DNA from: Eubacteriales bacterium
GTDB lineage: Bacteria; Bacillota; Clostridia; Oscillospirales; CAG-272
Assembly: GCA_045589435.1 (NCBI GenBank)
Contig: JAZNPB010000008.1
Location: 21,478 to 85,477 of the forward strand
Reading direction: 5' to 3'
DNA length: 64,000 nt
Part shown: positions 6,094-36,726 of the stretch, in pieces
Layout: each line of letters begins with the position of its first letter
Numbering within the stretch: position 1 is the stretch's first letter
The notes under the pieces: model-generated
Told to the model about the DNA's origin: nothing
The model's database searches: none
The model's input: only the letters and a program-made list of their open reading frames with translations
Made by a program: the position numbers and the translations under genes

Positions 6094-6125
6094 AAACCAA
6101 CATTTGGTAAATAAAAGTTAACAAA

Positions 6126-6910: not shown

Positions 6911-6953
6911 ATGGCAAATTACAAAATTGTTTCTTAAACTTTATTAAATTTCC

Positions 6954-6982
6954 TTGCAATTCACTAAATAATATGATATAAT
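6954..6982 (+). promoter_or_regulatory. Near-consensus extended -10 promoter heading the giant-protein gene string
   Basis: TTGCAA (6954-6959), 17-nt spacer ending in TGa, TATAAT (6977-6982). About 65 nt before the RBS aaaggagag and ATG 7048. Confidence 0.6.
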
Positions 6983-7047
6983 TTCGGCAACCCAAGCAAT
7001 ATTTTATTATATATCGCGTGGTAAGTTTTAATGAAAGGAGAGTATAA

Positions 7048-7545
7048 ATGTCACTTGTTTTTTTGGCCATCTCGATCTTTTTGCTTGATCGAATTCGGCA
7101 AACAGCTTTTTCAAAAGGCAAACGACAATTTTTATCAAAGCAAACGACGGATAAATTAAAGTGGTTCACTATCATCGCAGACCTTCTGCTATTCTCAGCG
7201 TTGTGTGTGAAATACATACTCTCTTCAGTTGAACCTTTCCTCCTGTATTTCGTAATTAATACGGAGGACATCCTAACGTCAGATGCCTTGACCTTGGCGC
7301 GTGGAGCACTTCAGTTTATTAGTACTCTTGAAACACCGCCTTTGGAATTCGCGTTTATTACGTTTATCCTTCTAGCTTACTTTGCAGCAATGATCGCACC
7401 CGGTGTTCTAATAGTATGCAGTTATTGCAGCGAGGAGCTATCACAAACCCCCTACCGCGATATCCTTCAATCGGGAGTGGAGAAGCCTCCCGAAATTTAT
7501 CCTAAGGAAAAGCTTTATTTGAAGCTTTGCCACCTCAGGAATTAA
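7048..7545 (+). CDS. Hypothetical small membrane protein
   Basis: Strong RBS (aaaggagag). Three or four hydrophobic helices (MSLVFLAISIFLL; WFTIIADLLLFSALCV; FAFITFILLAYFAAMIAPGVLIV). No recognisable family. Confidence 0.55.
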   Translation: MSLVFLAISIFLLDRIRQTAFSKGKRQFLSKQTTDKLKWFTIIADLLLFSALCVKYILSSVEPFLLYFVINTEDILTSDALTLARGALQFISTLETPPLEFAFITFILLAYFAAMIAPGVLIVCSYCSEELSQTPYRDILQSGVEKPPEIYPKEKLYLKLCHLRN

Positions 7546-13449: not shown

Positions 13450-13521
13450 ATGAAACAAATTTTATGTAGAATTTTGGTGTTACTCGTAGTAATCGCCGCT
13501 ATATTAGGTTTGTCCTCGTGT
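13450..13521 (+). other. Lipoprotein signal peptide with lipobox (Cys24)
   Basis: Basic n-region (K2, R7), hydrophobic core ILVLLVVIAAILG, lipobox L-S-S-C. Confidence 0.75.
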
Positions 13522-22500: not shown

Positions 22501-25500
22501 GCAAAGGCAGATATTGTTAAACCTAATATCACAGTTAATGCAACTTACGGTGACACCCTTGCAGATATTAAGTCCCAGCTTTCAAACTATGATAACGCAA
22601 ACGGAAACTGGACATGGGTAGATGCAGATACAACATCTGTTGGTGATCACGGACGAAATACGTTTAAGGCTAAGTTCACATCTACTGATAGTAACTTCAA
22701 CAGTATTGATGAATATCCAGTAACTGTAGTAGTTGCAAAGAAAGATATTTCCGGCGCAACAATAACACTTACAGGTCCCGCTCTCACATATACAGGAGCA
22801 GCGCAGACCCAGAACTACACAGTAGAGCTTGATGGATTTGCTACCTTCACTTACGATGATGATAACACTAACGTGGCTACCAACGCAGGTACACATACCA
22901 TCACCATTGCTGGTACAGGTAACTTTGATGGCGAAGTAACTAAGATCTTCGAAATCAAAGAAAAGACCATTACAGCTGATGATATAACAGTTAGTGAAAT
23001 CATCTATAATGGCGAAGAACAGACTCCTTCTGTAACAGTAGAAATCGATGGTATTATAGGCAGCATTACTTATGACGTGACCTGGAGCGATGCTACTGTT
23101 AAGGATGTAAGACCTGAAGGACGCTTGTATTCAGTAACAGTAACCGGTACTGATAACTTTGACGGTGTAGTAACTAAAGAGTTCAACGTTACACCTCTTG
23201 ATATTACAGAGAACGAAAACGTTGAAATATCTCTTGACAACAGTCTAACCTACAACAACGGAACAACTCTTATTCAGCAGTTTACTGTAAGAGTAAAAGT
23301 TGTAACAACCGAGGGTGAAAAGGTGCTTATTGTACCTTGTAATGTACTTGAAAAGACAAATGAAGTAAAAATAGCAGGCTCTCACACATTGCGTGTGGAA
23401 GCAAACGATGATAACTTCACAGGTACTGCGATAACGACCTTCAGCGTTGCAAAGGATAACTACGATATGAGCAATGTTCAATGGAGCGCATCTACGTTCG
23501 AGTACAATCAGACAGAAAGAGAAGTAACTATCGTAAGCGGTCTTCCCACAGGTGTAACTGTAACTGGTTACGAAAAGAATAAGGGAACTGTAAAGGGTGA
23601 TTACACAGCAACAGCAATTCTTTCCTATGATGAGCAGAACTACCATGCTCCTAGCGCAACTCATAATTGGAGTATCACAACAGCATATATCGAAATGCCT
23701 ACAAAGGGAACAACAAGCTTCACTTATGATGGAACCGAAAAGACGTTCTTCAGCCAGACCAGCACTTATTGGACTGCAACAGGAACTCTTAAGGCAACTG
23801 ATGCAAGTACAAGAAAGTATGTTGTAACAATTACCTTCAATGCAGCAGATATTGGTAGCTGTCAGTGGAAAAATGCAGAAACAGGAAAAGAAACTGCAGC
23901 ACTCACATATGAGTACACAATTTCTCCTCTTGATATTACAAACGCAACAGTAAATCTTGATACAAGTACACCTCTTGTTTATGGTGGTAACATGACTCAG
24001 AATGTTATCAGCATTACAAAGGATGGTAAAACATTCTTAGTTAAGGACGGAGAAGTAGTTAACTTCTTAATAAGCGGCAACGTAGCAGAAACAGCAGGTA
24101 TTCATCCATTGACTGTAACTGCAAACAACAGTAACTTCACAGGTTTTGTAACTTGTGACTTCAACGTTGCAAAGGATACCTTTGATATGACTGGTGTTCA
24201 TTGGAATTACTCCGGTACTCCGTTCGTTTATGCAAAGAATACAACTCATACGGTAGAACTCGTAGGTCTTCCCGTAGGCTTAACACCTGTATACAGTGGC
24301 GTATATAGCGCAAGCGAGTTTGGCACTTACACTGCAAAAGTAACGTTCACTTACGATACTGTAAACTATGAAAAACCTACCGTTGCAGATTGTGAATGGA
24401 AGATCAATCCTGCAGAAGACAATGTGGGAACATTCACACCTGGTACAACCTCTTGGACATACGGAGATACAGTTACCTATACAGCAACATCTACGTATGG
24501 AACACCTACAATTAAGCTCTATGACTCTGAAGGAACGCTTCTTGAAACCTTCACAGGAACAAACGGAACTGCAACAGTATCCATTGGTCTCGGTGCAGGT
24601 ACAGGCTATAAAGTAAAGGTAACCTACGAAACATCTGCTAACTGGAATGCTGTAGCAGACAAAGAAACTACCTTCGACGTAGCACCGTCTACAGTTTACA
24701 CAGCAACTGCAGATGCAATTACAGATGCAGTTTATAGAGATCTTCTCTTAAGCAAGAAGGAAATTCCTACCGGTAGCGCATCTATTGCCGGTACATGGAG
24801 CTGGACTAGTGCTAATGCTGAAACAACTGTTGGTGATTTCGGCACAAACACATTCTACGCAACCTTCGAACCTACAGATCCAAACTACGCAGTGAAAACT
24901 AATGTTCCAGTAACTGTAATTGTAGACAAGGCAACCTTCAATATGGATGGCGTTAAGTGGGATTACTCCGGTACACCATTCGTTTATGCAAAGAATACAA
25001 CTTATACGGTAAAACTCGTAGGTCTTCCCGAAGGCTTAACGCCTAAATACGGTGGTGTATGCAGCGCATCTGCAGCAACAGATGATCATTACACCGCTAC
25101 AGTAAGCTTCGAGTACGATGCTAGCAACTATTACGCTCCTGGAGAAATAGATGATCTCGAATGGAAGATTGACAGAGCTCCAGTAAATAGACCTGCAAAG
25201 GATACTACAGTATACACCTACGATGGAGTAACCACCCACGAGTATAAGATCGTGAAGAATGATGAATTCTACAAGATTGAAGGAACACTTTCTGCAATGG
25301 CGGGTGGCACTTATGAGATTACCATTACTCTCGCAGATGGCAATAACACAAAGTGGGATGATGGAAGTACAGCTTCTCTTGTATATGACTTCGTAGTAGG
25401 TAAGGGTACGAACGCATTCACTGGAACTCTTACTATGGAGGGCTGGGAACACGACTCTACTGCAACTACACCTTCTGGCATTACTGGTGCTAAGTGGGAT

Positions 25501-28500
25501 TACGATGCATCTAAAGTAAAGTATGAGTATCGTGATTTAGACGGTGAGTGGTATGCCGAAAGTGAATTCCGTCCAGAGAATGACAGTCCTTTTGGAACAT
25601 ATGCAGTTCGTGCATATATGGAAGGTAACAACAACTACGATAAGTTCTATTCAGATGAAGTTGAATTTGAAATTACCGTAAAGACAGTTACAATTCCCGA
25701 AATTAACGCAACACAGGAATATGTAGAAGACGGAGATAATTACCCAACTATTAAGGGTACCAACGACATATTTGCAGAGGGCGATCACGGTGATTATACT
25801 GTAGAATATGTAGAAGGTATTGGTACAAAAGTTGGAACAACCTATTACGTATATGTAACTCTTAAGGATACTGTAAATACTAAGTGGAGTGATGGTACTA
25901 CTGAACCTAAAACTCTCTCCTATAGACTTACAGGTACACCTGCAAATATTGTGGTTGACGATGGCAATGACAAGATCGTGGACGGTTGGACCTTTGGAGA
26001 GGAACCTGCTGATTATGCAGCGGTTATTAAGGCTCTCACAAAGGTTTACTTCAAGGGTGAAGAAGTTCAAGACTTTGCAATGTCACTTAAGTACTACACA
26101 AGCAATGATGCTAATGCTGTTGGTTCGACAGATGTTCCTCAAGACCACGGAACATACTACTTCAAGATAGTAGTGGCAGCAGGCGCAGGATACGATACAA
26201 CTGAAAGTGACTTCTATCAGTTCGAAATCGCTCAGGCTCCTCTTACCCTTGGAGCAGATGTTACCGGAATCACTATTGGTGGTGTAGAATACGGCACAGC
26301 TCTTGAAAGTGTAAGCGTTTCTAATAAGGTTTACTACTACGACGGAGAAGAGTACAAAGAAATCTCCGGTACATGGTCATGGGATTCCGATAGCGAAGAA
26401 CTCGGCGCAGTAGGAAACTACACACGCACTGCAATCTTCACACCTAGTGATGACAACTACGCTCCTCTCACAGTAGAAGACGTACAGATTACAGTAGTTC
26501 CCAAGACTATCACCGTAACAAACAGCAGCCCTGCTGAAGATAAGGATACCGATGATTATCTTGACCTTGAATTCAAGGAAAGCGGATACGTAGAGGCAAA
26601 CTTTACAACAGTTACATTCAAGTGGAACAACGAAGAAGTAACTCTTGTTAAGGGCGAAAGCGGTGATTACATTGTGACTGTAACTTACGCTGGCGGAACT
26701 GCAACTCAGTACACAAATGCAGGCGTTTACACAGTAATAGTAACTCTCATTCAAAATGCAGACGGCAGTTATAATTACAACTTCGGTGTAAAAAATGTCG
26801 AAGGAACACCTACACCTATTGTAACCCAAACGTTCGTATTCGAGATTGAGAAGGCAACGTTAACACTCACCAATGGATTACCCGAAAATGCAGATTGCAC
26901 TTATGGTGGTACTTACCATGATAAGGGCGCAAGCTACTTTGAAGGATTGGCAACTCTCACACATGGTACAAAGACCTTCACACCTAGTGTAACAATCGCT
27001 TACTCAACAGACGGTTCCACTTATGGTGATGAAAGCACAACTCTTACCATCGGCGATGTAGGATATTACAAGATTACTTACACATATACCGGTAATGGCA
27101 ATTATGCATACTTCTCTGGTGAGGTAAAAATTCAAATTACACCAGCGGAAGTAAGGGTTGAAACTCCTAAACATAAGGGTTCCTTCTACGAGGATACGTT
27201 TAACTTCCTTGATGATAAGAATGATCAACCTAAAGCATATGACGCTGTTACTGGAGTTGAGCTTGTAGGCGGAACATTCAGTTGTGTAAGCTTGCACTTC
27301 AATTCAGAAAACCCAAATAATAGCTATTACATGCTGTCCTATAATCCTAACAACGCTAACTATAAGTGTTCCACTAATTTTGAAGTTCCAGTTTCTCTCA
27401 TTACAGTTGCAACTCTTCAAAGAGGAACCGAACTTACTAAATACGGTAGTATTGCAAAAGCGTTGGCAGCTGCTACAACTAGCGGTGATAAGGTTTGGGT
27501 AATTCCTGATACAAGCGGTAACATTGTTATTGATACAACTGATGTAAGTAAGACTGTTACTGTTAATGCAGGAACAACCTTGATTCTTCCTTACGCTAAG
27601 TATAACGGTGGAAACGATGCGAATGGCACATACAGAAATAATAGCTATGTTGCAACACTTACAGGTGACGGACTTCCCAAGGATACCAATCTTAAGACAC
27701 TTGTAATTCTTGGTAACGGCGTAACACTTGAAGTAAAGGGAACTCTCCATATAGCAGGTGAACTTTCCGGTGGTAACGGCGGAGCTCATTATTCAAGTCA
27801 TACCAAGGGTAATTATGGAGAACTCAGACTTGGTACTGATTCAACTCTTATTATTCCTAAGGATGTGAACGGAAAGATTGAGTGCTACGGCTTCATAACA
27901 CCGCTTGGAGAAAATAACGGTAGTAAGGTTGAAATTAGAGGCGGTACACTTTATCAGCCATTCACTCTCCTTGACCACCAAGGTGGTACTGCTCTTTCCT
28001 CTATCAAAAACAAAATGAATAGCAACCATATTGCACCATTCTATGAGTATCAGTTCAGAAACGTTCAGACCGATGTTTCAATTCACTATGGCGGCAAGCT
28101 AACAGTTTATGCAAACATGGATGCAACTTTACCGTTAGTAAATACTCTTCAACATAATGGTACACTGGTATGTATGGTTGGCCACGAAAAAGATACCGAA
28201 ACTGATAAAATGCCAATGCTTCAGCTTACAAGTTCAGAGTCGTACCTTAACGCTAAATTTGATAAGACAACTGGAATTCTGGACCTTGATCTCTTTGGTG
28301 GAGCAAAGCTTAACAGCATGGTTATGACGATTACGTTTGGAACGGATATTCCATTGTCAACTGAAAGCGTATTCTTCCCATTATCATGGACCATGGATAT
28401 TTCTCTTAATCCTACTGAAGAGCAAAAGTCCCAAAATAGAATAGCGCAATATAACGCTCCTTATATGATGCAGCTTGCTTGGGGAGGCAAATTCACAGTT

Positions 28501-31500
28501 GAGAAGGGCGCCAAATTTACGGTAAAAGATTTGGTTATCCATGATAACTATGAAACTAATCACAATATAGGTCTTCAGGAATATGCAAAAGCCAGCCCTG
28601 ATAAAGTGACAAGTAGACAAGATGCGATGTTCATTCTTAGAGGCGAGCTTTTTGTAACAGACGCAATCGGCGGCAAAGTTCGTGCTGACACTCCCGGTGC
28701 AAAGATTATCGCAGCTAGCGTTTCCTGCGTTTGGTATAAAGTGACTAGTAATAAAGCTGCAACAGAAGCTCTTACTTATAATCTCTCACTCTGGAAGCAT
28801 AGCAAGAGTGATGAAACTATCACCTATACTCAGTCTGATGTATCTGCAGCTGCAGGTGTGATTGCTTGGTATAACGGAAACGATTGGGTATCCGGATCTA
28901 CAGATACCGGCTTTGATGTTGTTATCAAGTACGTTGGTATCAATTCCGATGGAACGGAAACGGAAATCAAGAGTGATTATCACCATACCTATGATATATC
29001 CACGCTTAGTACGATCTTTGCAAACACGTTTATTGATCTTTCCGATGCTGATGATGGTAACTATAAGTTCATCGGTTGGTACTTATGTAAAGGCAATAAC
29101 GGATTCACTGATGAATACAGAATAATTACCGATAGAATTAGTCTTGAAGAGCTTTATACAAAGCTTGCTGCTGACGGTTATAACAACGTTACTATCTACT
29201 GCGTAATGGCTAACCCATCTTACACATTTGAGTATGATGATGGAACTGATTCTACAGCAGATGATAGCACGGCAAAATATTCTGCAACTCAGCTTCCTTA
29301 TGCATCTCTTGTAACTCTCGATCAGTATGACTTTGATACAACGGTTTCAAAATATCATACTGGCTGGAAGCTTGTTGATGCTAACGGAAACGAAATTGCA
29401 ACATTCACCAGAACAGATGTTATCACATGGAGCGTACCTGATCTTGAAGATATAGTAACAGCATATCTTTCTTCTATAGAGTGTGTTGATAATAACTACA
29501 CCTTCAAGCTTGTTGCAGTATGGACAGACAAGACGGCTGTTACTGTAAATTACGGTGAAAATGTTATTGATCTTGAAAATACTGTAATCTATCTCAACCA
29601 TGCATTTGGTCAGAGTAGTTACGACGATCTCGCGGATCTTACAATGGGAGATACTGAATACGATAAGAGCCTTTACTCTAACGGATGGGAAACTCCCGAT
29701 GGTGTAACCGTTTCCGGAACGACTGTAACTATTACGTCAACTGCAAACGTAGAGATCAAGGCTAAATGGCTCAATAAGGTTGTTCTCACTATCTATTATG
29801 GTGAAAATAGTCTTGGCTTGTCCCCTGTAACTACTATTTATCTAAATACAAGCCAAAATCAGACGTCTTATAAGACCAGTGTTCTTGCCGCTAAGACTGA
29901 CTCTACCAAGGAAACATTCTTCAATGGTTGGAAGGAGATGAGCAACTGTACAGTTAATGCTGCCGGAGATATAATCAATGTAACTTCCGGAGCAACAGAA
30001 GCTTCTATTCTTGCCAATACATGGGGAGTTAAGGATTGTGTAACAGTTGAATACGGCAATAACAACTTAGGTCTTCCCTTATCTAAGATAATCTATATTA
30101 ATCCTGATACTAATTCTTGTGTTATCGATAACGTAAATGCAAATGATGCTAATGTTACCGTAATTAAGTACTTTGACACTTGGGTTGGATTTGCTCTTAA
30201 TGCAGATGGTACTTATACTTACACAACCGACACAGGTATAACAATTACTATCAATGGCAGAAACATCACACTTGGTGGCAGCCTGACAGACACTGTAGAT
30301 AACGTTATTATCACAGCAAAGTGGGGAGAAAAAGAAAATATCAAGTTCAGTGGAAACAACGGTCTTACCGGTGAGAGTAATGTTAGTGTTGACGTTGAAG
30401 GTTATGTAAGAACTAATACCAATGATAACTTTGTTGCAGATATACAAAAAATGTTGGCAGATAAGATCAAAGATCAGGCTAATATAAAGGATAGTGATCC
30501 TGATGTAAATCAGTATTTCTATGGTTTATCTTATAATGGCAAGACTTATAGTGAATACGATTCTGATAATCCTTATTCCAATATGGAGTATGTAGAAAAG
30601 GTTAACTCCATAACAGTTGAATGGACTGGCAAATATGAAGTAAAAGTTTCGTCAAGCAATGCTAATGTAACGGTTAATGGAAATTCAGTAAGCAATAACG
30701 GAAGTGTATATTTTAAGCCCGGTGACAAAGTTACAGTAAGTGTTAGTTACACTCAGACTGAAAAACAAACTACTACCATAACAGGCGCAGATAAGACTAC
30801 TTATACTTCTCCATTCGATATGCCTAGCCAAGCGGTTACAATTAGTGCTAGTAGCTCAAGCTGTATCGCAGCCGGAACACTCATCACCCTCGCAGATGGA
30901 ACACAGAAGAAGGTTGAAGATCTCCTTGACACTGATATTCTTCTCGTTTACGATCACGAGAGAGGAGAATACGTTGCTTCACCTATTGTATTCATCGAGA
31001 GAGACGGTTGGAATTACTACAACGTAATCTATCTTGAATATTCAAACGGTGTTACTAATAAGCTTATTTACGAGCACGCTATGTTCGACCTCACTCTTAA
31101 TACTTACGTATATATCACAGAGGCAAATTACCTTGATTACGTAGGTCACGAGTTCGCATACTTCAACGGTGAATCTATTGAAAGTGTGACTCTTGAAAAC
31201 GCATACGTTAAGAATGAGTACACAGGCTGCTTCAGCTTGGTAACAGCAGTTCATCTCAATTACTTCATTGATGGAATGTTCTCGATCCCAGGTGGTATTG
31301 AAGGCATATTCAACATCTTCGAGTACGGAGAGGACCTTAAGTATGATTCTGAACAGATGCAGAAGGATATTGAAACTTACGGACTTTACACTTACGAAGA
31401 TTTCGCAGAGTATGTTCCGGAAGAAGTATTCTATGCATTCCAGGCACAGTACTTCAAGGTTGCAGTTGGCAAGGGTATGATCACATTTGAAGAAATCATC

Positions 31501-31545
31501 GAAATGATTGATAGATACCTTGTTAAAAACGGAGTTATTGAATAA
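13450..31545 (+). CDS. Giant (6031 aa) surface lipoprotein/adhesin: MBG/YDG-like repeats, conserved module, Listeria-Bacteroides-type repeats, C-terminal Hint domain
   Basis: One uninterrupted 18,096-nt frame with RBS aaagga upstream. Signal peptide plus lipobox MKQILCRILVLLVVIAAILGLSSC. Dozens of 80-110-aa repeats with recurring motifs (F.YDG..H, IY.G..Q, ATYGD.L, GTY.Y.A.FTP.D.NY, NYKW.D). No LPXTG, SLH, choline-binding or dockerin motif noticed. Confidence 0.9.
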   Translation: MKQILCRILVLLVVIAAILGLSSCNIFIEPELTTYDLVVEDFDREVVFGSELDLEGLYLRATTGDDVKVIPVNASMIKNGDTSSVGEKELTIEYGGFSWQLSYDVYYKVEHIVDGMVYDSQMVMSRDELFYVKEPSKTGSIFLSWDKAIPSELTDNLTITAVFLDGLELPKFSATYGDTLGDLELPEAKGGHWEWKHDLDTPVGNAGKLNTFTLAFIPEVNTENAIEFDVNISVAKKELEIRVLEDTFEYDGEKHNVKYAIYDGDKLVDYFVNVIEFSSPQSVIGTYDYTIQMADANYTATARKGSFSIVKIAVTVRVELDKSSIKYGEDFPGYRIIVEKDGEAFDFEDGIKLGIIKPATLEKGYYDIVATVKDENGDDIDNLYKYDITYVNAGFTVEGIDFNPGKPQFSTADGTDIFYGDKLSKVVFDPHPNGEWTWDFDYAGGDTVGDANPEPKLFRAIFTPYDTSYNVYYADIAIEVRKKELNVDLDMNNPAEKTVTVIYDGKEHGIKYVIWDWDANHEEKIDLTDKFSVTGNVTYVTAKEEGYKIVIRIDHPNYTGEDEFKLIIKKAVPETDFDRIITATWQSGMTLASIELPQGYAWEPVGNTAPNKVAVTGAGTYTYTATFTPEDTTNYLTVTDDFTVVVTHANSTIDGLNASYDSWTFNNNDHKLADLLSGITVTGTDRVVKYYYNGREVTTLKEAGTYLITVRVLESGQYKEVSADTIVIIKRATAEINNYGIPDNGWTYGHDAKTPYAYKNLSYVGDIVVEYKLASAADSAYTTTVPTLAGAYVARFSIVGGEGYNWNSAEPKYVNFTIAKAVVTAPTITSKIYTGSSQKADVEPTDLYTIKENLGGTNAGNYNVVLALTDSANYKWEKTDAAEYTATFSIGKAPNAIAPFEAGTWVYGDEISHSTTATFGEVVKITYYDKQNNKVTSFDAGEYVARAEVEGTSNYEGAVLSVNFTVGQLPVAVPELKENTFIYTGSLIKPEFKTAIPENAPYWVTNDGKVAVNNSTTPTYAVTLQLKNNNYKWADGDTSNIKSLTYVINKAEAKISGLTITGWTFGDDANSPSASTTFGTISYDYYVNGAWQTAAPKNAGNYTVRATVNGTGNFDGDFATFDFTIAKADATINGVNADKKYTTVYSGSKFSIAGVTSSHTETTPVYTIKNSAGVTVGEMVNADTYTVIISLASTANYNAAESIEVEVFIDKFDVHTPELVSNSRMYNKGIYKPAVKTDAHNKYYTYEYSTPDSTIVGTYSVNFTLNNENYRWDDATFANVLTYNITKANAEITLTSNAFEKYYRIQGYTRADVITGVGRSHEESELSYSIESFGDANTYTVIVSLPASHNYNAAENKTITVTIKKQLVYAPSISDLIYNGAAQAPDVDDSDLYEVFENVGGTNAAAYNVVLRLKNSANYKWSDDATDEAEKTTVVYNIKPATITLSELTTKTFKYLDTISFTSQKSYNVDNKTDFGVVRYIYSKTADFAVTVTPDDVGFYYVKAYVDGDINWGYEETLPVRFQITERPFDVPALSWTSKVYNDEILKPTVAKDDNIYSVQFVTENSEDVGTYTVKFTLTNSNYKWNDAYSGTERSRTYSITPATPTIAGFASTSKPYDTHAMNLSTTASIPGSTLSATITYYSAKDDAAVIPAPTNFGTYYVKASVGSGKNWSAASTDFIEINITKASANITVDTSDIVVTYGDTFALPIATTNLGSVNVDKTVADLVNVGTYYVTYTVVGNTNYNGDTETVKVIIGELAVDEPTVIGTLTYLTNASGVAIEQQVNLGVLPSYMTIKEGTNKGTLAGGYTVEITLDKNHKWAENSDGRVEWSIAKAKLTKPTANTATFTYNTESQTYTPVNFDAKTMSITNNVQSNANETGYSVVVSISDTANYEWVGGTQENIGFTFVINKLEVVEPQAIGTLTYMVDSENVAIAQQVNLGVLPSYMTVVEGTDVKSAAGNYTAKITLDENHKWASGSDGDVEWSIAKAKLTKPTANTTTFTYNTESQTYTPVNFDAKTMSITNNVQSNANETGYSVVVSISDTANYEWVGGTQENIGFTFRIYKLAVEEPTVSSTHTYTSVEHTVTLDKFYDSYMDIVLGTDKGTAAGNYCVEIKLDDNYVWKFGHDGKVDWTIAQATTSITGLSITGWTYDQYNAVTNKANYTVTTDSGFVIPESYIKVWYKSTKAGSTWSEIVPTDADTYQFKVVVGTDANENWAAEELISNEFTVEQLAVNEPTATGTYTYTVVDNEAIVHEVTLVGYDSSYMTITLGTNKESTAGTHTVIITLDNNHKWAENSDGHVEWSIAKAKIDLKDVEWNYSDAFAYNGEAKSVALKTASLPGGFGTIYTVNYTNNSETDEGDYTASAAFAFLGNNSSNYEFVGTVADCEWKIDPAEDNVVTFTAGATSWTYGDTVSYTATSTYGTPTIKIYDSEGTLLATSTGANGTATVSIKLNADTNYKVTVTYETSANWNTVENVEATFGVAQSTAYTAKANSIDDAVYGDLLLAKRAIPTGTVTVNGTTLAGTWKWQNVTSETKVGSAGTNTFYATFTPDDANYAATTNIAVTVNVAKYGLAVPNGIQVEYNDGHTVYSGVASSYFNDKLSSDGILDTDIIDVVDNGGSAVGDVVTLTLTIKDEFKGNYYWISYNADETVATTTYIVVVDKNSWEVDGEPTDMEWTYGEDGEVVDEPTANPVSGIGSEKKITYKLQSDADIPENWNDWSTISAETPAGTYDVKFVVTHPNYADMEKTVKLVIKTRVVELPTLATNSFTYQGKDAQGNDIVITPVVTHNDDETLYETINTGNVNVGTGYKITFTLPNKNYEWADGHGNEDNKLVYELTYNITAATDNEGTFTAGATSWTYGDTVTYTATSKYGTPTIKLYDSEGTLLETFTGANGTATVSIGLGAGTGYKVKVTYETSANWNAVADKETTFDVAQSTAYTATADSINAVYGDLLLSKKEIPTGSASIAGTWSWNSANAETTVGDFGTNKFYATFTPDDANYAATTNIAVTVNVAKADIVKPNITVNATYGDTLADIKSQLSNYDNANGNWTWVDADTTSVGDHGRNTFKAKFTSTDSNFNSIDEYPVTVVVAKKDISGATITLTGPALTYTGAAQTQNYTVELDGFATFTYDDDNTNVATNAGTHTITIAGTGNFDGEVTKIFEIKEKTITADDITVSEIIYNGEEQTPSVTVEIDGIIGSITYDVTWSDATVKDVRPEGRLYSVTVTGTDNFDGVVTKEFNVTPLDITENENVEISLDNSLTYNNGTTLIQQFTVRVKVVTTEGEKVLIVPCNVLEKTNEVKIAGSHTLRVEANDDNFTGTAITTFSVAKDNYDMSNVQWSASTFEYNQTEREVTIVSGLPTGVTVTGYEKNKGTVKGDYTATAILSYDEQNYHAPSATHNWSITTAYIEMPTKGTTSFTYDGTEKTFFSQTSTYWTATGTLKATDASTRKYVVTITFNAADIGSCQWKNAETGKETAALTYEYTISPLDITNATVNLDTSTPLVYGGNMTQNVISITKDGKTFLVKDGEVVNFLISGNVAETAGIHPLTVTANNSNFTGFVTCDFNVAKDTFDMTGVHWNYSGTPFVYAKNTTHTVELVGLPVGLTPVYSGVYSASEFGTYTAKVTFTYDTVNYEKPTVADCEWKINPAEDNVGTFTPGTTSWTYGDTVTYTATSTYGTPTIKLYDSEGTLLETFTGTNGTATVSIGLGAGTGYKVKVTYETSANWNAVADKETTFDVAPSTVYTATADAITDAVYRDLLLSKKEIPTGSASIAGTWSWTSANAETTVGDFGTNTFYATFEPTDPNYAVKTNVPVTVIVDKATFNMDGVKWDYSGTPFVYAKNTTYTVKLVGLPEGLTPKYGGVCSASAATDDHYTATVSFEYDASNYYAPGEIDDLEWKIDRAPVNRPAKDTTVYTYDGVTTHEYKIVKNDEFYKIEGTLSAMAGGTYEITITLADGNNTKWDDGSTASLVYDFVVGKGTNAFTGTLTMEGWEHDSTATTPSGITGAKWDYDASKVKYEYRDLDGEWYAESEFRPENDSPFGTYAVRAYMEGNNNYDKFYSDEVEFEITVKTVTIPEINATQEYVEDGDNYPTIKGTNDIFAEGDHGDYTVEYVEGIGTKVGTTYYVYVTLKDTVNTKWSDGTTEPKTLSYRLTGTPANIVVDDGNDKIVDGWTFGEEPADYAAVIKALTKVYFKGEEVQDFAMSLKYYTSNDANAVGSTDVPQDHGTYYFKIVVAAGAGYDTTESDFYQFEIAQAPLTLGADVTGITIGGVEYGTALESVSVSNKVYYYDGEEYKEISGTWSWDSDSEELGAVGNYTRTAIFTPSDDNYAPLTVEDVQITVVPKTITVTNSSPAEDKDTDDYLDLEFKESGYVEANFTTVTFKWNNEEVTLVKGESGDYIVTVTYAGGTATQYTNAGVYTVIVTLIQNADGSYNYNFGVKNVEGTPTPIVTQTFVFEIEKATLTLTNGLPENADCTYGGTYHDKGASYFEGLATLTHGTKTFTPSVTIAYSTDGSTYGDESTTLTIGDVGYYKITYTYTGNGNYAYFSGEVKIQITPAEVRVETPKHKGSFYEDTFNFLDDKNDQPKAYDAVTGVELVGGTFSCVSLHFNSENPNNSYYMLSYNPNNANYKCSTNFEVPVSLITVATLQRGTELTKYGSIAKALAAATTSGDKVWVIPDTSGNIVIDTTDVSKTVTVNAGTTLILPYAKYNGGNDANGTYRNNSYVATLTGDGLPKDTNLKTLVILGNGVTLEVKGTLHIAGELSGGNGGAHYSSHTKGNYGELRLGTDSTLIIPKDVNGKIECYGFITPLGENNGSKVEIRGGTLYQPFTLLDHQGGTALSSIKNKMNSNHIAPFYEYQFRNVQTDVSIHYGGKLTVYANMDATLPLVNTLQHNGTLVCMVGHEKDTETDKMPMLQLTSSESYLNAKFDKTTGILDLDLFGGAKLNSMVMTITFGTDIPLSTESVFFPLSWTMDISLNPTEEQKSQNRIAQYNAPYMMQLAWGGKFTVEKGAKFTVKDLVIHDNYETNHNIGLQEYAKASPDKVTSRQDAMFILRGELFVTDAIGGKVRADTPGAKIIAASVSCVWYKVTSNKAATEALTYNLSLWKHSKSDETITYTQSDVSAAAGVIAWYNGNDWVSGSTDTGFDVVIKYVGINSDGTETEIKSDYHHTYDISTLSTIFANTFIDLSDADDGNYKFIGWYLCKGNNGFTDEYRIITDRISLEELYTKLAADGYNNVTIYCVMANPSYTFEYDDGTDSTADDSTAKYSATQLPYASLVTLDQYDFDTTVSKYHTGWKLVDANGNEIATFTRTDVITWSVPDLEDIVTAYLSSIECVDNNYTFKLVAVWTDKTAVTVNYGENVIDLENTVIYLNHAFGQSSYDDLADLTMGDTEYDKSLYSNGWETPDGVTVSGTTVTITSTANVEIKAKWLNKVVLTIYYGENSLGLSPVTTIYLNTSQNQTSYKTSVLAAKTDSTKETFFNGWKEMSNCTVNAAGDIINVTSGATEASILANTWGVKDCVTVEYGNNNLGLPLSKIIYINPDTNSCVIDNVNANDANVTVIKYFDTWVGFALNADGTYTYTTDTGITITINGRNITLGGSLTDTVDNVIITAKWGEKENIKFSGNNGLTGESNVSVDVEGYVRTNTNDNFVADIQKMLADKIKDQANIKDSDPDVNQYFYGLSYNGKTYSEYDSDNPYSNMEYVEKVNSITVEWTGKYEVKVSSSNANVTVNGNSVSNNGSVYFKPGDKVTVSVSYTQTEKQTTTITGADKTTYTSPFDMPSQAVTISASSSSCIAAGTLITLADGTQKKVEDLLDTDILLVYDHERGEYVASPIVFIERDGWNYYNVIYLEYSNGVTNKLIYEHAMFDLTLNTYVYITEANYLDYVGHEFAYFNGESIESVTLENAYVKNEYTGCFSLVTAVHLNYFIDGMFSIPGGIEGIFNIFEYGEDLKYDSEQMQKDIETYGLYTYEDFAEYVPEEVFYAFQAQYFKVAVGKGMITFEEIIEMIDRYLVKNGVIE
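18721..19644 (+). repeat. Two tandem 462-bp (154-codon) in-frame repeat units
   Basis: The motif caggtcaacc is at 18799 and 19261 (offset 462). Cores 18940-19173 and 19402-19635 differ at 6 of 234 nt. More diverged partial copies at about 19645-19860 and 20140-20380. Confidence 0.9.
20611..21168 (+). repeat. Dispersed intragenic repeat, copy D1
   Basis: Encodes DCEWKIDPAEDNVVTFTAGATSWTYGDTVSYTATSTYGTPTIKIYDSEGTLL...FYATFTPDDANYAATTNIAVTVNVAK. Homologous to D2 and D3. Confidence 0.9.
22012..22506 (+). repeat. Dispersed intragenic repeat, copy D2
   Basis: Offset from D1 is 1356 nt (acctcttgga at 20671 versus 22027). Its 3' part (ttctacgcaaccttcacacccgatgatgcgaactacgcagcaacaaccaatatcgcggttactgtaaacgtagcaaa) is identical to D1. 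Confidence 0.9.
24388..24868 (+). repeat. Dispersed intragenic repeat, copy D3
   Basis: Offset from D2 is 2421 nt (acct at 22027 versus 24448). Perfect D2/D3 runs of 126 nt (22139-22264), 64 nt and about 69 nt. The two off-frame ORFs 21875..22195 and 24368..24616 translate to near-identical peptides. Confidence 0.9.
27091..29210 (+). other. Conserved module of about 700 aa shared with the truncated paralog at 33886..35900 (function unknown, beta-solenoid-like)
   Basis: Collinear protein similarity by eye. Giant first, paralog second: GNGNYAYFSG / NGNYAYSG; VWVIPDTSGNIVIDT / VWVIPNTSGDVIIDT; LILPY in both; ECYGFITPLGENNGSKV..LYQPF / NCYGFITEESKNNGSQV..IYQPF; FFPLSWTMDISLN / YFPISWVFDISLN; F.GWYL..IY (IYCVM / IYAKW). 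Confidence 0.8.
29000..30325 (+). repeat. Five Listeria-Bacteroides-type (Flg_new-like) repeats
   Basis: Repeated pattern ..Y..(F/Y/H).GW......(I/V).A.W: YKFIGWYLC..IYCVM; YHTGWKLVD..LVAVW; YSNGWETPD..IKAKW; FFNGWKEMS..LANTW; YFDTWVGFA..ITAKW. Confidence 0.65.
30862..31284 (+). other. Hint (Hedgehog/intein-type) autoprocessing domain, 141 aa, starting at Cys5805
   Basis: Block A: SSSS|CIAAGTLITLADGTQKKVEDLLDTDILLVYD. Block B-like: NKLIYEHAMF (the His is present). Block F/G-like: GCFSLVTAVHLNYFIDGMFS. The usual terminal His-Asn and a +1 Cys/Ser/Thr extein residue are absent. Confidence 0.75.
31285..31542 (+). other. 86-aa acidic, aromatic-rich, probably helical tail following the Hint core
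   Basis: IPGGIEGIFNIFEYGEDLKYDSEQMQKDIETYGLYTYEDFAEYVPEEVFYAFQAQYFKVAVGKGMITFEEIIEMIDRYLVKNGVIE. No family recognised. Confidence 0.5.
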
Positions 31546-31596: not shown

Positions 31597-31726
31597 CAAA
31601 ATTCCTAGGGGTGAAAATCCCCTAGGAATGACCACAAGAATTTACAATTTAAGCGCAAAATACGGTTTCGTATTTTGAAATAAGAAAAGCCCACCGCAGA
31701 TCTTTATGGTCTGCGGTGGGTATTTT
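31597..31726 (+). repeat. Three-hairpin 3' module, left copy; hairpin 3 acts as a bidirectional terminator
   Basis: H1: ttcctagggg-tgaaaat-cccctaggaa (31602-31628). H2: aaatacg-gttt-cgtattt (about 31658-31675). H3: cccaccgcaga-tctttatgg-tctgcggtggg (31690-31720) followed by tatttt. Inverted homolog at 33063-33192. Confidence 0.8.
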
Positions 31727-31766: not shown

Positions 31767-32870
31767 TTATTCATTGAATTTTGAGTTGTTTTTTGCGAAG
31801 TCTTTCATAAATTCCACAAGGCTTTCAACCGCCTCAAGGGGCATGGAATTATAGATAGATGCGCAGATTCCGCCGATGCTTTCATGACCTTTCAGGTTGG
31901 TGAAGCCTGCCAGCGAAGCCTCGATACAGAATCGCTCATCAAGGGCAGAGCTACCGGTATTGAACACCACGTTCGTCATGGAACGGCATTTTTTATCGAT
32001 AGTTGAAATATAGTAGAACTGACCGTCGATAAAATCATAAAGGCAGCTGGCTTTTTTCTCGTTTCGGCGCTTCATTTCCTCAAGTCCACCGATGGATTTT
32101 ATCCATTGGAATACCAGCTTTGCCACGTAGATATTAAACACAGGGGGAACGTAATCTGATGCGCCCTGCTCGGAGAGGATCTCGTAGTTAAACATGGATG
32201 GTGTTTCGGGAAGAGGGTTGCCAATCAGGTCGGAACGAATGATAACAACCGTCATAGCCGCGGGAGCAACGTTCATCTCGGAGCTAGCATAGATCATTGC
32301 AAATTTCGAAATATCAATAGGCTCGGAGAGGATGCAAGAGGACATATCAGCAACCAATGGGATGTTACCCGTGTCCGGAACTGCCGGGAATTTTGTTCCG
32401 TAAACCGAGTTGTTATAGCAAATATGAACATAGTCCGCGTCGGGGCGGAAGCTGGAGCGAGTTGCCTCCGGAATAGTTGAAAAAATAGGTGTCGCGCCAC
32501 CGGAAGAAGCCGCAACGGCAATGTCACCGTACCTCTTTGCCTCCAGCATAGCCTGACGTGAGCGCTGTCCGGAGAGAATGTAGTCCGCGCACTTGTGAGC
32601 CGAGAGCAAATTCATAGGCACCATGGAAAACTGCTGTGTTGCATCGCCCGGAAGGAACATTACCTTGTAGTTTGCGGGAATGTGCATCAGCTCGCGCAGG
32701 AGTCTTTCTGCATCGTGCAAAATCTCTTTGAATGCAGGGGATTTCGGGCTGATCTCAAGGATCGACATTCCGGAATCGTTGTATGATAAAAGATCTTTCT
32801 GAACTTGCTCAATGACCTCCGCGGGTAGCATAGCAGGCCCGGAGGCGAAATTATATACTCTTTTTGACAT
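31767..32870 (-). CDS. Phosphoserine aminotransferase (SerC)-like protein lacking the PLP-binding lysine; probable pseudoenzyme or neofunctionalised paralog
   Basis: Collinear over its full length with E. coli SerC as I recall it (NF.SGPAMLPAEV; IP.NYKV.F; ADMSS.ILS.PID.S; LKGH...GG..ASIYN.MPLE.V..L..FM..F). The AGAQKNIGPAGL motif reads ASSEMNVAPAAM. RBS aaggag present. Confidence 0.85.
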   Translation of the reverse strand: MSKRVYNFASGPAMLPAEVIEQVQKDLLSYNDSGMSILEISPKSPAFKEILHDAERLLRELMHIPANYKVMFLPGDATQQFSMVPMNLLSAHKCADYILSGQRSRQAMLEAKRYGDIAVAASSGGATPIFSTIPEATRSSFRPDADYVHICYNNSVYGTKFPAVPDTGNIPLVADMSSCILSEPIDISKFAMIYASSEMNVAPAAMTVVIIRSDLIGNPLPETPSMFNYEILSEQGASDYVPPVFNIYVAKLVFQWIKSIGGLEEMKRRNEKKASCLYDFIDGQFYYISTIDKKCRSMTNVVFNTGSSALDERFCIEASLAGFTNLKGHESIGGICASIYNSMPLEAVESLVEFMKDFAKNNSKFNE

Positions 32871-32907
32871 TTTACGTAATTTTCTCCTTGGTAGGACTTT
32901 TTCTTAT

Positions 32908-32936
32908 ATTATACTATTTTTTCAAGGAAAAATCAA
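32908..32936 (-). promoter_or_regulatory. Promoter of the SerC-like gene
   Basis: Minus-strand TTGATT (32936-32931), 17-nt spacer, TATAAT (32913-32908), about 38 nt upstream of ATG 32870. Confidence 0.5.
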
Positions 32937-33062
32937 GAGGTTTGGGAGTTTTTAGTTATTTTGTGGGGTGTATAGATAAAAACACTGCTTTTTTTGCTTT
33001 TTAATTTGCTTTTTATGAGTTTAAAAAAGCAGCGTCAAATATTACTAAATTAGCTAAAAAAA

Positions 33063-33192
33063 TCACCCACCGCAGGCCATAAAGATCCGCGGTGGGCTTT
33101 TTAATTTCAAAGCACAATCCCGTGCTTTTTCATTGAATTTTGTAAATAATGGTTTTCATTCCCTAGGGGTTTTCGCAAACCCCTAGGTTTTT
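33063..33192 (-). repeat. Three-hairpin 3' module, right copy (inverted); terminator of the truncated paralog
   Basis: H1': ccctagggg-ttttcgcaaa-cccctagg (33161-33187). H2': aaagcac-aatccc-gtgcttt (33109-33128). H3': cccaccgc..gcggtggg (33066-33096), with ttttttt following on the minus strand. Confidence 0.8.
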
Positions 33193-33243: not shown

Positions 33244-35900
33244 TTAGTAATTTAACAGTTTAAGCTTTGTATAAACTGTTCCGGCAGTGGAAGTCCAAGT
33301 TATTTGAGCACTTGTCGATATGCGACCACTATATCCTTGTTCTGTTAGTGTTGTACCATTTTCTGTTAATCTAACGCTATTTTTATAATAACCATAGGTT
33401 CCCAATCCGTAAGTTCCTCCGGATACTTTGGATGTTATAGTCACCGTACCATTCGCATTATATTGAACAGTTACACTATGATAATCACCTGCGGCCAAGG
33501 ACGTTGTATCAAATGTTATTCTTGCTAACACAACAATTGAAGTTGCTGTGCAAGACGAACCTTCACTACCATTTATTGTTACGTTTTGTGTTTTATCACT
33601 ACCGTTAGTAATGTTATTAACGCCCTCAACATAACCTGTGGTGAATTTAGGAAGCGTATCAGTACCTAAAATATGATAGGACTTCATGTGATATACCAAC
33701 GTCGTTCCTGATTCTACGTAAATTACTTTAACACCGCTATAGTTTCTAGTGTCAAATCCGCCTTCGTAAAGAATAGCATTTCCGTTCGCATCAGCATAGT
33801 ACGCTTCACATGTGATATATGCTCCATCAGGGAGATCTGGAAGCGTTACCGCTACATAACTAGATACAGGTTTAATTTCTGTGATCCACTTTGCATAAAT
33901 TTTAATTACATCAGAAGATAGCACATCATAATTCGTAGCACTTGTGATAGATCCAAATCCAACACTAAATGTTGTATTATCAAGATACCAACCATCAAAT
34001 ATCTTATCACTTCTTTCATGTGTAGGTGTGGGAAGCTTTGAAACTACATATGCTTCTTTGACCTCGTCATATTTCACTACAATATCATCACATGCATTGC
34101 CGCCGTTAGTAACAAATTCAAGTGTAACTTGATCTAGTATCCATTTTCCATTGTATACTTTTGCAGATCTTCCTGACGTAGTTATGCCAACGGGCGCACT
34201 TACACTAACCATATTACCGTCCGCATCATATGATTCGAAGTAACAAAGTGAAGTGTTAATAATGTTACTATGCCATGTATCTATGTGTCCAGTGGTGGTT
34301 GTTTTGCCTAATATTGTTGAAGTTGTTGTATAGTAAACACATTCAAACAATGTCAGGGTTGGACTTTCTGAAATACTAACAGTTGCGCCATGATTATTAG
34401 AGTAAATCTTACCTGCGAAGTTGGTTGCAACTAATGATCCATTGACTACAAATACTGCTTCGCTCGTTATTGGACACGGATTGGGATCGCCGGTTGGAAG
34501 ATTGTGAATACTGTCATAAACGGCGAAGTTTCCAGCGGTAAATTCAGTATTTTCATTTACAGTCAATCTTGCACCATGCATTAACTTTGTTGGATAGTTG
34601 ATTTGATATTTAGCAATAGCAGTTTGATCGTTAGCTTGATTCAATGATATATCAAATACCCAGCTTATTGGGAAGTAATACTCCGATGTGTTTACGTCAA
34701 TCGAGCCAAGATCCACGCCCAGTACTTCTCCCAATATTAATGTCATTTTAATCTCATTCAACCTTGCACCACCATATATATCTAACTTACATGGATTGCC
34801 GCTTTGTGCCAACAATTTATCATGATCATATTTCGCTACAACTTTACTGTAAGTTGAATCTGTAAGTTCAAGAAGCGCAGCAGATCCATTTCCAATTACT
34901 GACAAGGTTGCAGGATTGTGTTTTCCACCGGCATAAAGGTTGGCCCATCCATACAAACTAGCAGCATGATATATTGTCATTTCGGGTCGAACGTTCATTA
35001 GAACAAACTCACTAAATGGAGCCTGTGACAAAGTGTTTTTCTTATCGTACACAGTCTTCATATAGGTACCGCCGCCAAAGTCAAGGAATACAAATGGCTG
35101 ATAAATGCTTCCTGCGTTGAGTATTACTTGGCTTCCGTTGTTTTTAGACTCTTCTGTAATAAAGCCATAACAATTAATAACAGCGTCTTTAGAACCTGTA
35201 GGTATTTCTATTTTTGAATTGCTGCCCAATACTAATTCTGCATACAAACCTTCCGTGTGACCTGCATAAGGTGTACCGCCGGAACCACCAGCCAACTGGC
35301 CTGATATCTCAAGGATACCATTCAGCGTGATAGTCTTGCCAGCCGACAACTTAACTAATGTCATTCTTTCTTTCAATTCTGAAAGTGAGTAACCACCTAC
35401 TATCGTTGCGGTGGTGCTGGTGTTTCTACCATTAGCATCATCTGTAGTTCCGTAAGGAAGAATAAGAGTTACATCAGAATCAATAGTAAGATCAGTATCG
35501 ATAATTACATCGCCTGAGGTGTTAGGAATTACCCAAACGGTTCCACCACCGGTACTGTCATTCGCTGCTGTAACAGCATCAAATATTGTGTAATAATTGG
35601 TGCTATTATAGGTGGCTACTGCCGTAAGGTTGACAGTATAATCTGTTTTTGATACAGATTTATAATTTGAACTTGTAGGAGTGAATACAATTGTAAATGT
35701 TGCAACACCCGCGTCTATCGAAACGCCAGTAAACTCAAACGCACCGTCAACACTTGCAACGCCTGTAGTTGAAATCTTACTCAAATCGATAAGATTCTTA
35801 TAGGTCTTACCTGTGTAAGTAGGCCATGTCGTTACTGTAGGTGTATCCTGTGTAATCTGGATAGTTACACTAGTTCCGGAGTAGGCATAATTGCCATTAT
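33244..35900 (-). pseudogene. 5'-truncated paralog of the giant protein's conserved module (no start codon context, RBS or signal peptide); frame still open
   Basis: Homology to giant aa about 4548-5250 begins abruptly at NGNYAYSG (about nt 35900), in the last strand of an MBG-like repeat. The ORF-track N-terminus (TTG at 36015, MKASSTLPYSVTRPPFFHIITHFFHF) is antisense translation of a GTGG-box region. No in-frame ATG for about 200 codons. One Listeria-Bacteroides-type repeat (FDGWYLD..IYAKW) plus a unique 213-aa tail. Confidence 0.7.
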
Positions 35901-36238
35901 GGGAAGTTGACAATTTTTTTAGGATTTTTGCGGTAGAGAAGTGGAAAAAGTGGGTGATGATGTGGAAAAAAGGAGGGCGGGTTACGGAGTAGGGAAGCGT
36001 TGACGATGCCTTCAAGCAAAAATGAGCGGGAAACTGATTTTTCTTTTGTGAATATACTGAAAATGCTTGAAAGGTGCTTTGGATTTGCGGTTTTTTAGGA
36101 GTTTGTTAAAAAATCTGCGCAATGTAACAAAATAATCACATTTTCGCCACAAAACTCTAAAAAAATCTCAACAAAACCTACATAGTTTATATAAAAATTC
36201 GAAATATATTAACTTTTATTAAATATTGGAAAAAGATG

Positions 36239-36336: not shown

Positions 36337-36726
36337 ATGAAAAAGACAATTTCTACAATCCTCGTATGCGTTCTTCTCGTAGGTTCGCTTCTTTCTCTCG
36401 CTTCTTGCGAAGTAGCAGGTTTCGTATTCGGAACTTATTCCAGAACAGACAAAATTATTGTTGACGTAACAACAACATACGAGTTCTCACTCACAGAAGT
36501 AACAAAGACCGTTACAACTGAAAACCTTATCGGCGACGGCAAGAACACAACAACCGAGACCATGAAGTACAAGGTTGGCGAAAACGATGAAGGCGAAAAG
36601 GTTATCGCTTTCACAGTTGAAACAGATGACGGTTCCAAGACAACAGAGTATAGCTTCAACTCCGGCAAGGATGACGGTGGCTCTTACATCGAAATCGCTG
36701 GTACAAGATACTACTCCGTAAAATAA
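36337..36726 (+). CDS. Small hypothetical lipoprotein (129 aa)
   Basis: RBS aaaggag. Signal peptide plus lipobox MKKTISTILVCVLLVGSLLSLASC. Thr/Glu/Asp-rich mature part. Confidence 0.7.
   Translation: MKKTISTILVCVLLVGSLLSLASCEVAGFVFGTYSRTDKIIVDVTTTYEFSLTEVTKTVTTENLIGDGKNTTTETMKYKVGENDEGEKVIAFTVETDDGSKTTEYSFNSGKDDGGSYIEIAGTRYYSVK

Follow-up and report, generated by a model that had tools for sequence, protein, structure and literature searches.

A SerC homolog without the Schiff-base lysine at a locus without serA in uncultured gut Clostridia

The locus described here raises the question of why a gene is kept when the protein that it encodes has lost the lysine on which the enzymes of its family depend. 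The gene lies in a stretch of 64,000 nucleotides (the window) taken from contig JAZNPB010000008.1 of a Eubacteriales bacterium (assembly GCA_045589435.1), at positions 31767..32870 on the minus strand, and encodes from an ATG start a protein of 367 aa that is homologous to SerC, the phosphoserine aminotransferase (PSAT). We use the name serC' for this Lys-less SerC homolog. An earlier note, made from the DNA letters alone, had described an intact frame of 367 codons, and the open reading frame (ORF) is there as described. The same note had proposed several checks, namely comparisons with profile hidden Markov models, a mapping of the active site onto PSAT structures, a measurement of the ratio of non-synonymous to synonymous substitution rates (dN/dS, or omega) together with a search for disrupted genes in sister strains, and an inspection of whether Lys-less orthologs lie beside giant adhesin genes. 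These checks were run. Their results point to an explanation that we regard as probable, in which serC' would be a descendant of serC whose partner gene serA was lost, whose active site was released from selection, and whose protein has been kept for a role other than transamination.

Fold and active site of the serC' protein

The Pfam family PF00266 (Aminotran_5) matches residues 5-349 of the serC' protein with E=5.3e-28. Among the more specific profiles, PRK05355 (SerC, an NCBIfam equivalog) scores 448.5 bits, above its cutoff of 253, while TIGR01364 (serC_1) scores 423 bits, below its cutoff of 443.6. A phmmer search of the PDB with the serC' protein returned 20 entries, all of them PSATs, and the best of these, 4xk1 (1.5e-93), is collinear over residues 1-361; the alignment with E. 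coli SerC agrees, and the end-to-end collinearity with SerC that had been claimed by eye is confirmed. The AlphaFold model of the protein, calculated from an input alignment of 44 sequences, has a mean predicted local distance difference test score (pLDDT) of 87 and a predicted template modelling score (pTM) of 0.88, and its comparison by Foldseek with the PSATs 4xk1, 1w23 and 1bjn gives template modelling (TM) scores of 0.91-0.92 with a root-mean-square deviation of ~2 A. Pfam, phmmer and AlphaFold agree in placing the protein in the class-V aminotransferase (fold type I) architecture, collinear with PSAT, and the PSAT fold is predicted to be intact.

The substitutions in the active site were defined against the real E. 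coli K-12 SerC (b0907) aligned to the serC' protein, and every entry of the list that the earlier note had drawn up matches this alignment. In the Schiff-base region G195 and A196 are both replaced by S, Q197 by E198 and K198 by M199. The codon of Met199, which stands where E. coli SerC has the Schiff-base lysine K198, lies at 32274..32276 on the minus strand, and CAT is found there on the plus strand, where the note had placed it. Elsewhere in the protein H41 is replaced by P42 and R42 by K43; H73 by P74, G75 by D76, G76 by A77 and R77 by T78; W102 by R103 and T153 by S155; N239 by Y240 and T240 by V241; and R329 by E330 and R335 by C336. The GPAMLP motif, D174 (D175 in the serC' protein), S176/S177 (S177/S178), H328 (H329) and the ASIYN motif are kept. 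The crystal structures of AtPSAT1 identify 18 residues in contact with pyridoxal 5'-phosphate (PLP) or phosphoserine (PMC6043687), and by motif mapping onto our alignments 12 of these 18 are replaced in the serC' protein. What remains of the PLP-binding set (W102, D174, the loop GG(A/G)(S/T/R) and Asn239/Thr240 of the partner subunit) is D175 and A77-T78 only, and from the phosphoserine-binding set (His41/Arg42 of the partner subunit, His328/Arg329 and Arg335) H328 alone remains. The Schiff-base Lys that follows Gln197 is lost in the alignments with both E. coli SerC and the PDB PSATs, and no lysine stands at its position when the active site is mapped onto the PSAT structures.

To judge from these alignments, the serC' protein cannot work as a phosphoserine aminotransferase, since the internal aldimine cannot form once the Schiff-base Lys is lost; with the Lys and 12 of the 18 contacts gone, we arrive at the same view as the earlier note. 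Binding of PLP is very probably absent too, because G75D and Q197E bring negative charge to the phosphate and O3' sites, both N239 and T240 have gone, and the stacking aromatic residue is now an Arg. A relocated catalytic lysine, for which K43 would be the candidate, was considered and rejected: this lysine is present in the closest clade only, its place being taken by G, S, D, T or N in the remaining Lys-less lineages.

Lys-less relatives, serA loss and selection on the gene

Of the 8000 candidates scored in the protein search, 7549 were relatives at E<=1e-20, and the best 120 were examined. The same substitutions are present in 22 independent clusters at 90% identity (P0001-P0022, 77-100% identical and drawn from many samples), which share the signature P-K / P-G-D-A-T / R / (S/G)-(S/A/T)-E-M / H-E / C with few single-site variants; because the pattern recurs in 22 clusters from many samples, it is neither chance nor an assembly error. 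The next relatives are stepwise less modified, P0023 at 75% identity and then P0024 and P0025 at 64-66%, and in other Lys-less lineages (57-65% identity) the K is replaced by I, V, Q, A, N or H. Canonical relatives (62-66% identity) carry the full signature H41 R42 G75 F102 D174 Q197 K198 N239 T240 H328 R329 R335, the class of 139 canonical relatives having K at the Schiff-base position by definition. Across the wider diversity of SerC, the lysine is present in 146 of 150 representatives of 50%-identity clusters. Lys-less SerC is rare overall and is concentrated in this group of uncultured gut Clostridia, which comprises metagenome-assembled genomes (MAGs) assigned to Eubacteriales, Clostridia or Oscillospiraceae and sampled from the gut or faeces of ruminants and other hosts. 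The best match in our scan of a genome collection was 64% identical, the closest clade being absent from its species representatives.

Gene order was compared between canonical and Lys-less loci. The canonical order is serC-serA-bipA in L003 and L009, with one extra gene between serA and bipA in L015, and the 386-aa gene downstream of canonical serC has the 2-Hacid_dh and ACT domains of a SerA-type 3-phosphoglycerate dehydrogenase. All testable canonical genes (58/58) have serA directly downstream. Within the locus, taken as <=10 kb downstream, serA was found for 0/20 Lys-less genes, and the contigs of P0045 and P0108 are also without it (0/22 in total); the pathway context of a serA next to serC is missing at the window locus and at 21 other Lys-less loci. 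Genes that retain the Lys and have lost R329 or other residues (L005, L068, L007 and L017) are likewise without serA. The clade of the window has the conserved order serC'-p129-yitT-yitT-bipA-indA-GFO, in which GFO encodes a GFO/IDH oxidoreductase, and in other Lys-less lineages serC' stands directly before bipA or before yitT-bipA. We conclude that serC' is the positional ortholog of serC at loci that have lost serA and not an added paralog, so that the extra paralog which the earlier note had considered possible is set aside. In an unbootstrapped neighbour-joining tree of BipA, canonical lineages containing serA are interleaved with degenerate ones (L009/L005, L003/L011 and L015/L073 are adjacent), and the residue that replaces the Lys differs among lineages (M, I, V, Q, A, N or H); on these two grounds we tentatively propose at least three independent losses of serA. 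The gene p129 (36337-36726, plus strand) encodes a lipoprotein-like protein of 129 aa without a Pfam match, and lies beside serC' in every contig examined from the clade of the window and from the P0023 and P0024 lineages.

Some of the relatives deserve a description of their own. In the SerC tree a graded series leads from P0120 (K to I, R329 to P) to P0108 (with R335 to C in addition), then to P0095 and to a more eroded group linked to a HAD gene. This second Lys-less group (L004, L008, L014, L016, L023, L024, L051 and L094, the last being P0108) has I or V in place of the K together with R335 to C, and its gene always follows directly on a HAD-family hydrolase gene and in most of these loci precedes a gene for an RNase_T-type exonuclease. 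The HAD gene could be left over from a phosphoserine-phosphatase-like step or stand in for one. In L093 (P0045; gene at 6001-7113), K198 to H is the sole change from the canonical active-site signature, and the order is serC'-yitT-bipA without serA; this gene represents either the earliest stage of inactivation or a His variant like that of ColD, which is considered below. Position 336 (E. coli R335) holds only R or C across the 11 Lys-less lineage representatives, which could be due to a mutational bias from CGY to TGY or to a constraint on the site.

Two pairs of closely related genomes give the most direct view of selection on the Lys-less gene. Between L082 and L083 there are 27 synonymous and 0 non-synonymous differences in serC', and between L085 and L086 there are 12 and 0; taken jointly (39:0), these counts have P ~3e-24 under neutrality. 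Over the longer distance between the window and L082, dN is 0.097 and dS 1.65, which gives an omega of 0.06, and the comparison with L084 gives an omega of 0.10. For the same genome pairs omega is 0.015-0.03 in BipA, 0.04-0.07 in IndA, 0.03-0.04 in GFO, 0.05-0.14 in YitT and 0.09-0.19 in p129, so the value of serC' between the window and L082 falls between those of IndA and YitT. No frameshift or stop was found in the 22 Lys-less genes examined, all of which are full-length, or in the 4 Lys-retaining genes without serA. These results indicate that serC' has been retained by strong purifying selection and is not decaying as a pseudogene would, and the retention argued for in the earlier note is borne out by them and by the conservation of promoter and leader described below. 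The protein evolves faster all the same: dN(SerC)/dN(BipA) is 4-12 in degenerate pairs versus 0.4-1.8 in canonical pairs. Of the 158 sites that are invariant in the 139 canonical relatives, 79 are kept in 11/11 Lys-less lineages and 105 in at least 10, and the least-kept sites are K198 (0/11), H41 and R42 (1/11 each), M40, G195 and R329 (2/11 each) and A82 and F102 (3/11 each). Relaxation thus appears to be concentrated in the active site, most of the least-kept sites being PLP or phosphoserine contacts.

The signals for expression are conserved as well. A promoter scan identified a sigma-70-type promoter, TTGATT-17-TATAAT, at 32908..32936 (minus strand) with 10/12 consensus positions, and a ribosome-binding site (RBS), AAGGAG, lies at 32884..32889 (minus strand), 13 nt before the ATG. 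Both elements are present where the earlier note had located them; the spacer between RBS and ATG is rather long at 13 nt, compared with 6-11 nt in relatives. The promoter is conserved in L082, L088, L090 and L091, AAGGAG is found upstream of the gene in 8/8 clade members examined, and clade members with serC' in either orientation retain the -35 box, the extended -10 (TAGTATAAT) and AAGGAG. Over the 75 nt before the ATG (32871-32945, minus strand) the window and L082 are identical at 72/75 positions (96%), against 53% at third codon positions, which suggests that the promoter and leader of serC' are under selection. The leader (~40 nt) may carry a regulatory element, the synonymous sites of the gene being near saturation; Rfam elements (riboswitch, T-box or other RNA) gave 0 matches across the whole window. 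The gene is predicted to be monocistronic, with its own promoter and its own terminator. Polarity, by which the ORF would be kept for the expression of bipA, was rejected as a cause of retention, as it predicts an omega near 1, and as serC' in the window runs opposite to bipA and has a promoter and a terminator of its own.

The adhesin neighbourhood and its inverted repeats

The earlier note had described serC' as standing between two adhesin genes and inside inverted modules. One neighbour is a gene at 13450-31545 (plus strand) for a repetitive giant surface (adhesin-like) protein of 6031 aa with an N-terminal lipoprotein-like signal. Its first 1000 and last 1498 residues gave nothing in Pfam at E<=0.001, its orthologs in relatives give weak Flg_new matches, and a C-terminal stretch (SSSSCIAAGTLITLADGT...) looks by eye like a Hint/intein-like autoprocessing module. 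The other neighbour, an adhesin-like ORF of 923 aa at 33244-36015 (minus strand) with a mechanically assigned TTG start, is specific to this window and absent from related loci, so that the setting between two adhesins does not hold beyond it. This ORF has no Pfam match and no convincing N-terminal signal sequence by eye, and its identity to residues 4549-5161 of the giant protein is 32%; it is an old diverged paralog or a fragment, possibly truncated at its 5' end.

Each of the inverted modules is a copy of a terminator region with two hairpins, and the two copies (31601-31726 and 33060-33187) stand in opposite orientation on either side of serC'. The left arm of a 42-nt inverted repeat (I1; 31685..31726, unstranded like the other repeat features here) is a hairpin terminator that separates the giant adhesin gene from serC'. 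It contains a terminator-like hairpin at 31689-31721, next after which CTTTTCTTATTT is read on the minus strand, and this predicted terminator can serve both convergent genes. The right arm (33060..33101) is placed as the terminator of the 923-aa ORF, and the two arms are 90% complementary. A second terminator-like hairpin of the left module (CCTAGGGG...CCCCTAGG; 31601..31629) pairs with a similar terminator-like hairpin of the right module (33162..33187). The 42-nt motif has 2 occurrences in the window, where 0 are expected by chance, and is found in 0/86 other loci.

Scored against the p129-yitT-bipA block, serC' has one orientation in the window, L001 and L090 and the opposite one in L082, L083, L084, L085, L088 and L091, and in L090 p129 is also flipped in place. 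Gene-sized local inversions seem frequent at this spot. Comparable flanking repeats in relatives of either orientation were weak and at chance level only. A conserved inverton was rejected, as the 42-nt repeat is confined to the window and relatives with either orientation are without comparable repeats; a silent-cassette or shufflon system of adhesin genes was rejected because the DNA inverted repeats are short and 72-81% complementary and the proteins are 32% identical. No recombinase was seen among the annotated neighbours of serC', no search aimed at recombinases having been made. The region looks like a local rearrangement at an insertion-prone spot and not like a functional unit.

Competing explanations and known systems

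The explanation that we regard as probable would run as follows. In a lineage of uncultured gut Clostridia the locus has lost serA, which encodes the first enzyme of the phosphorylated serine pathway, and with the pathway broken, the active site of the aminotransferase would no longer have been held by selection. Replacements followed at the Schiff-base Lys, at the contacts to the PLP phosphate and at the His and Arg that bind phosphoserine, and an anion-binding pocket became neutral or acidic (K198M, R329E, R335C, Q197E, G75D). The rest of the protein appears to have stayed under strong purifying selection with a conserved promoter, which suggests that the protein is made, and we infer for it a function other than transamination. 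As to what that function might be, we give slightly less than an even chance to the proposal of a scaffold or binding protein that has neither cofactor nor catalytic activity and retains the PSAT dimer. The former cofactor cavity would be plugged by the side chains of R103, D76, E198 and M199, and the role may already have been present in the ancestral enzyme as a moonlighting function. The adhesin genes would be neighbours by descent and rearrangement, and not partners. A wider claim, that SerC of these gut Clostridia has a second, catalysis-independent function that alone is sufficient to keep the gene, seems to us rather doubtful; it would account for several lineages that deleted serA yet kept a full-length SerC with its pocket eroded or re-plugged, and the dead copies retained in several lineages fit moonlighting without proving it.

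Several observations weigh against the retention of serC' for a new role after serA loss. The Lys-less lineages have different pocket residues and hence no site in common for a new ligand, and comparison of the loci gave no partner gene conserved across those lineages. The constraint on serC' is clearly weaker than that on the working enzyme, as its protein evolution is 4-12 times faster relative to BipA. Non-covalent binding of PLP or pyridoxamine 5'-phosphate (PMP) is conceivable, given that D175, S177/S178, the A77-T78 backbone and H329 are kept. Finally, the count of at least three losses comes from an unbootstrapped neighbour-joining tree of a single, highly conserved protein (BipA).

These observations must be set beside those that bear on the alternatives. 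We think it unlikely that the pocket formed by D76, R103, D175, E198, H329, E330, C336 and K43 runs a new reaction, which could possibly be metal- or thiol-dependent, could use PMP on a non-phosphorylated or cationic substrate, or could have another residue in the role of the lysine. Such an enzyme would fit an intact fold under selection, the restriction of R335 to R or C in the 11 Lys-less lineages, the kept D175, S177/S178 and H329, and the existence of Lys-less PMP enzymes such as ColD and the E1 dehydratases. It would also fit the (near) invariance of D76, R103, E198, M199, E330 and C336 within the 22-cluster clade, but this is a raw invariance that stands without comparison to the clade's background conservation. 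Across lineages, however, the pocket varies (M, I, V, Q, A, N or H at position 199; R, A, F, H, C or Y at 103; K, G, S, D, T or N at 43), leaving no common catalytic constellation, and the PLP-phosphate contacts Q197, N239 and T240 are replaced while G75D is negative at the phosphate loop. If, on the other hand, the gene were a functionless relic, useless after the loss of serA and persisting because little time has passed or because selection acts against misfolding of an expressed protein, the perfect association with serA loss, the progressive erosion of active-site residues in a different way in each lineage and the 4-12 times faster protein evolution relative to BipA would all be expected. 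We find this quite improbable in view of the 39 synonymous versus 0 non-synonymous differences in two recent pairs, the omega of 0.06-0.10 that persists after synonymous saturation, the absence of any frameshift or stop in the 22 Lys-less and 4 serA-less Lys-retaining genes, and a promoter conserved at 96% versus 53% for third codon positions. Selection against misfolding would not protect the promoter, nor would it keep the gene from being deleted, and unused genes do get removed here, since serA is cleanly gone from the locus.

Two further alternatives assign the serC' protein to a partner. As a dead regulatory subunit, in the manner of prozymes or PDX1.2, it would pair with an active class-V aminotransferase or with a second canonical SerC. 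The PSATs, as obligate dimers, have active sites shared between the two subunits (PMC6043687); PDX1.2 (cited in PMC6522883) shows that such pseudoenzyme partners exist; and another serC elsewhere in the genome is possible. The gene, however, sits at the ancestral serC position with serA gone, which argues for pathway loss and not duplication; the interface residues N239 and T240 that reach the partner's site are replaced; and the 80 genome matches listed, in a scan that was not exhaustive, include no two serC-like loci from one assembly. We therefore judge a regulatory subunit to be highly improbable. The functional link with the adhesins that the earlier note had suggested, taken here to mean that the serC' protein would help to modify, fold or export the flanking giant surface proteins, fares worst and is in our view barely credible. 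All contigs of the closest clade (the window, L001, L082, L083 and L088-L092) do have a giant adhesin-like gene next to serC', but these genomes are nearly identical (BipA 96-99%), and shared synteny is expected among genomes so close. Beyond that clade the association does not hold: in the P0023 lineage DUF559 and DUF2130 genes lie between serC' and the adhesin, the P0024 contigs have DUF2130 as the upstream neighbour with no adhesin gene called, and in other Lys-less lineages the immediate neighbours are different (a HAD hydrolase, an inorganic pyrophosphatase and others, the larger upstream proteins being unannotated). Moreover, serC' is predicted to be monocistronic with its own promoter and terminator, its orientation to the adhesin flips among relatives, and its protein is without a signal peptide by inspection. 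As the ancestral serC of a serC-serA-bipA locus, the gene predates the adhesin neighbourhood.

If serC' is an ortholog stranded by pathway loss, its annotation matters. The Lys-less members of the P0023 cluster (P0121-P0125) are named 'phosphoserine aminotransferase' by JGI and public sources, and since the PRK05355 cutoff is passed and such names are in public use, automatic annotation mislabels the whole clade. In metabolic reconstructions these gut MAGs could be given a step of the serine pathway in error, where the locus data point to pathway loss and possible serine auxotrophy. The locus would also offer a clear bacterial case of an ortholog that became a pseudoenzyme after its pathway partner was lost, with intermediate stages surviving in related genomes (K kept and R329 lost; K to H only; K to I plus R329 to P). 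Lasting purifying selection on a PSAT scaffold without its cofactor implies a further role, and the protein is small and probably soluble enough to test. Should SerC prove to have a second function, the dead copies would be a natural separation-of-function series with which to find the moonlighting role of a universal enzyme.

Compared with known systems, serC' resembles SerC/PSAT (EC 2.6.1.52; E. coli 1bjn, B. alcalophilus 1w23, P. aeruginosa 4xk1 and A. thaliana 6czx) in being 40-42% identical and collinear, with the same predicted fold and the chromosomal position that serC has in relatives, but it is without the Schiff-base lysine, has 12 of 18 contacts replaced and no adjacent serA, and evolves 4-12 times faster relative to BipA. 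The canonical SerC of Clostridia (P0026, P0061, L003, L009 and L015) is 62-66% identical and encoded at a locus flanked by bipA, and unlike serC' it keeps the full active-site signature and always has serA next to it. As the lysine, the PLP set, the phosphoserine set and the pathway context are missing, serC' should not be filed as a PSAT. ColD and the E1 3-dehydratases have an aspartate-aminotransferase-type fold with His at the lysine position and keep their cofactor-binding residues. They share with serC' the type of fold and the missing Schiff-base lysine, but serC' has Met in place of His and has lost the phosphate and O3' contacts, Q197, N239, T240 and W102 all being replaced, and for these reasons a Lys-less PMP enzyme of the ColD/E1 type was rejected; only the singleton P0045 is a plain K-to-H variant, as at the lysine position of ColD and E1.

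The serC' protein belongs to the SerC family by homology and, as far as can be read from sequence, fits the category of pseudoenzyme. Homology combined with the loss of essential catalytic residues was found, and the coding sequence appears to have been under purifying selection afterwards; as to expression, a conserved promoter, leader and RBS were observed, and expression itself is only predicted. The literature searched, whose coverage was incomplete, yielded no account of a dead or moonlighting SerC. Among described cases, PDX1.2 is a pseudoenzyme that has lost its catalytic residues and kept its fold (cited in PMC6522883), and a census of M. tuberculosis notes non-enzymic PLP-fold proteins (PMC12910592). 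Like these, serC' has lost catalytic residues while its fold is kept, apparently under selection. The PDX1.2 and M. tuberculosis cases are extra paralogs that exist beside an active copy, whereas serC' is an ortholog stranded by the loss of its pathway, and is found in several lineages.

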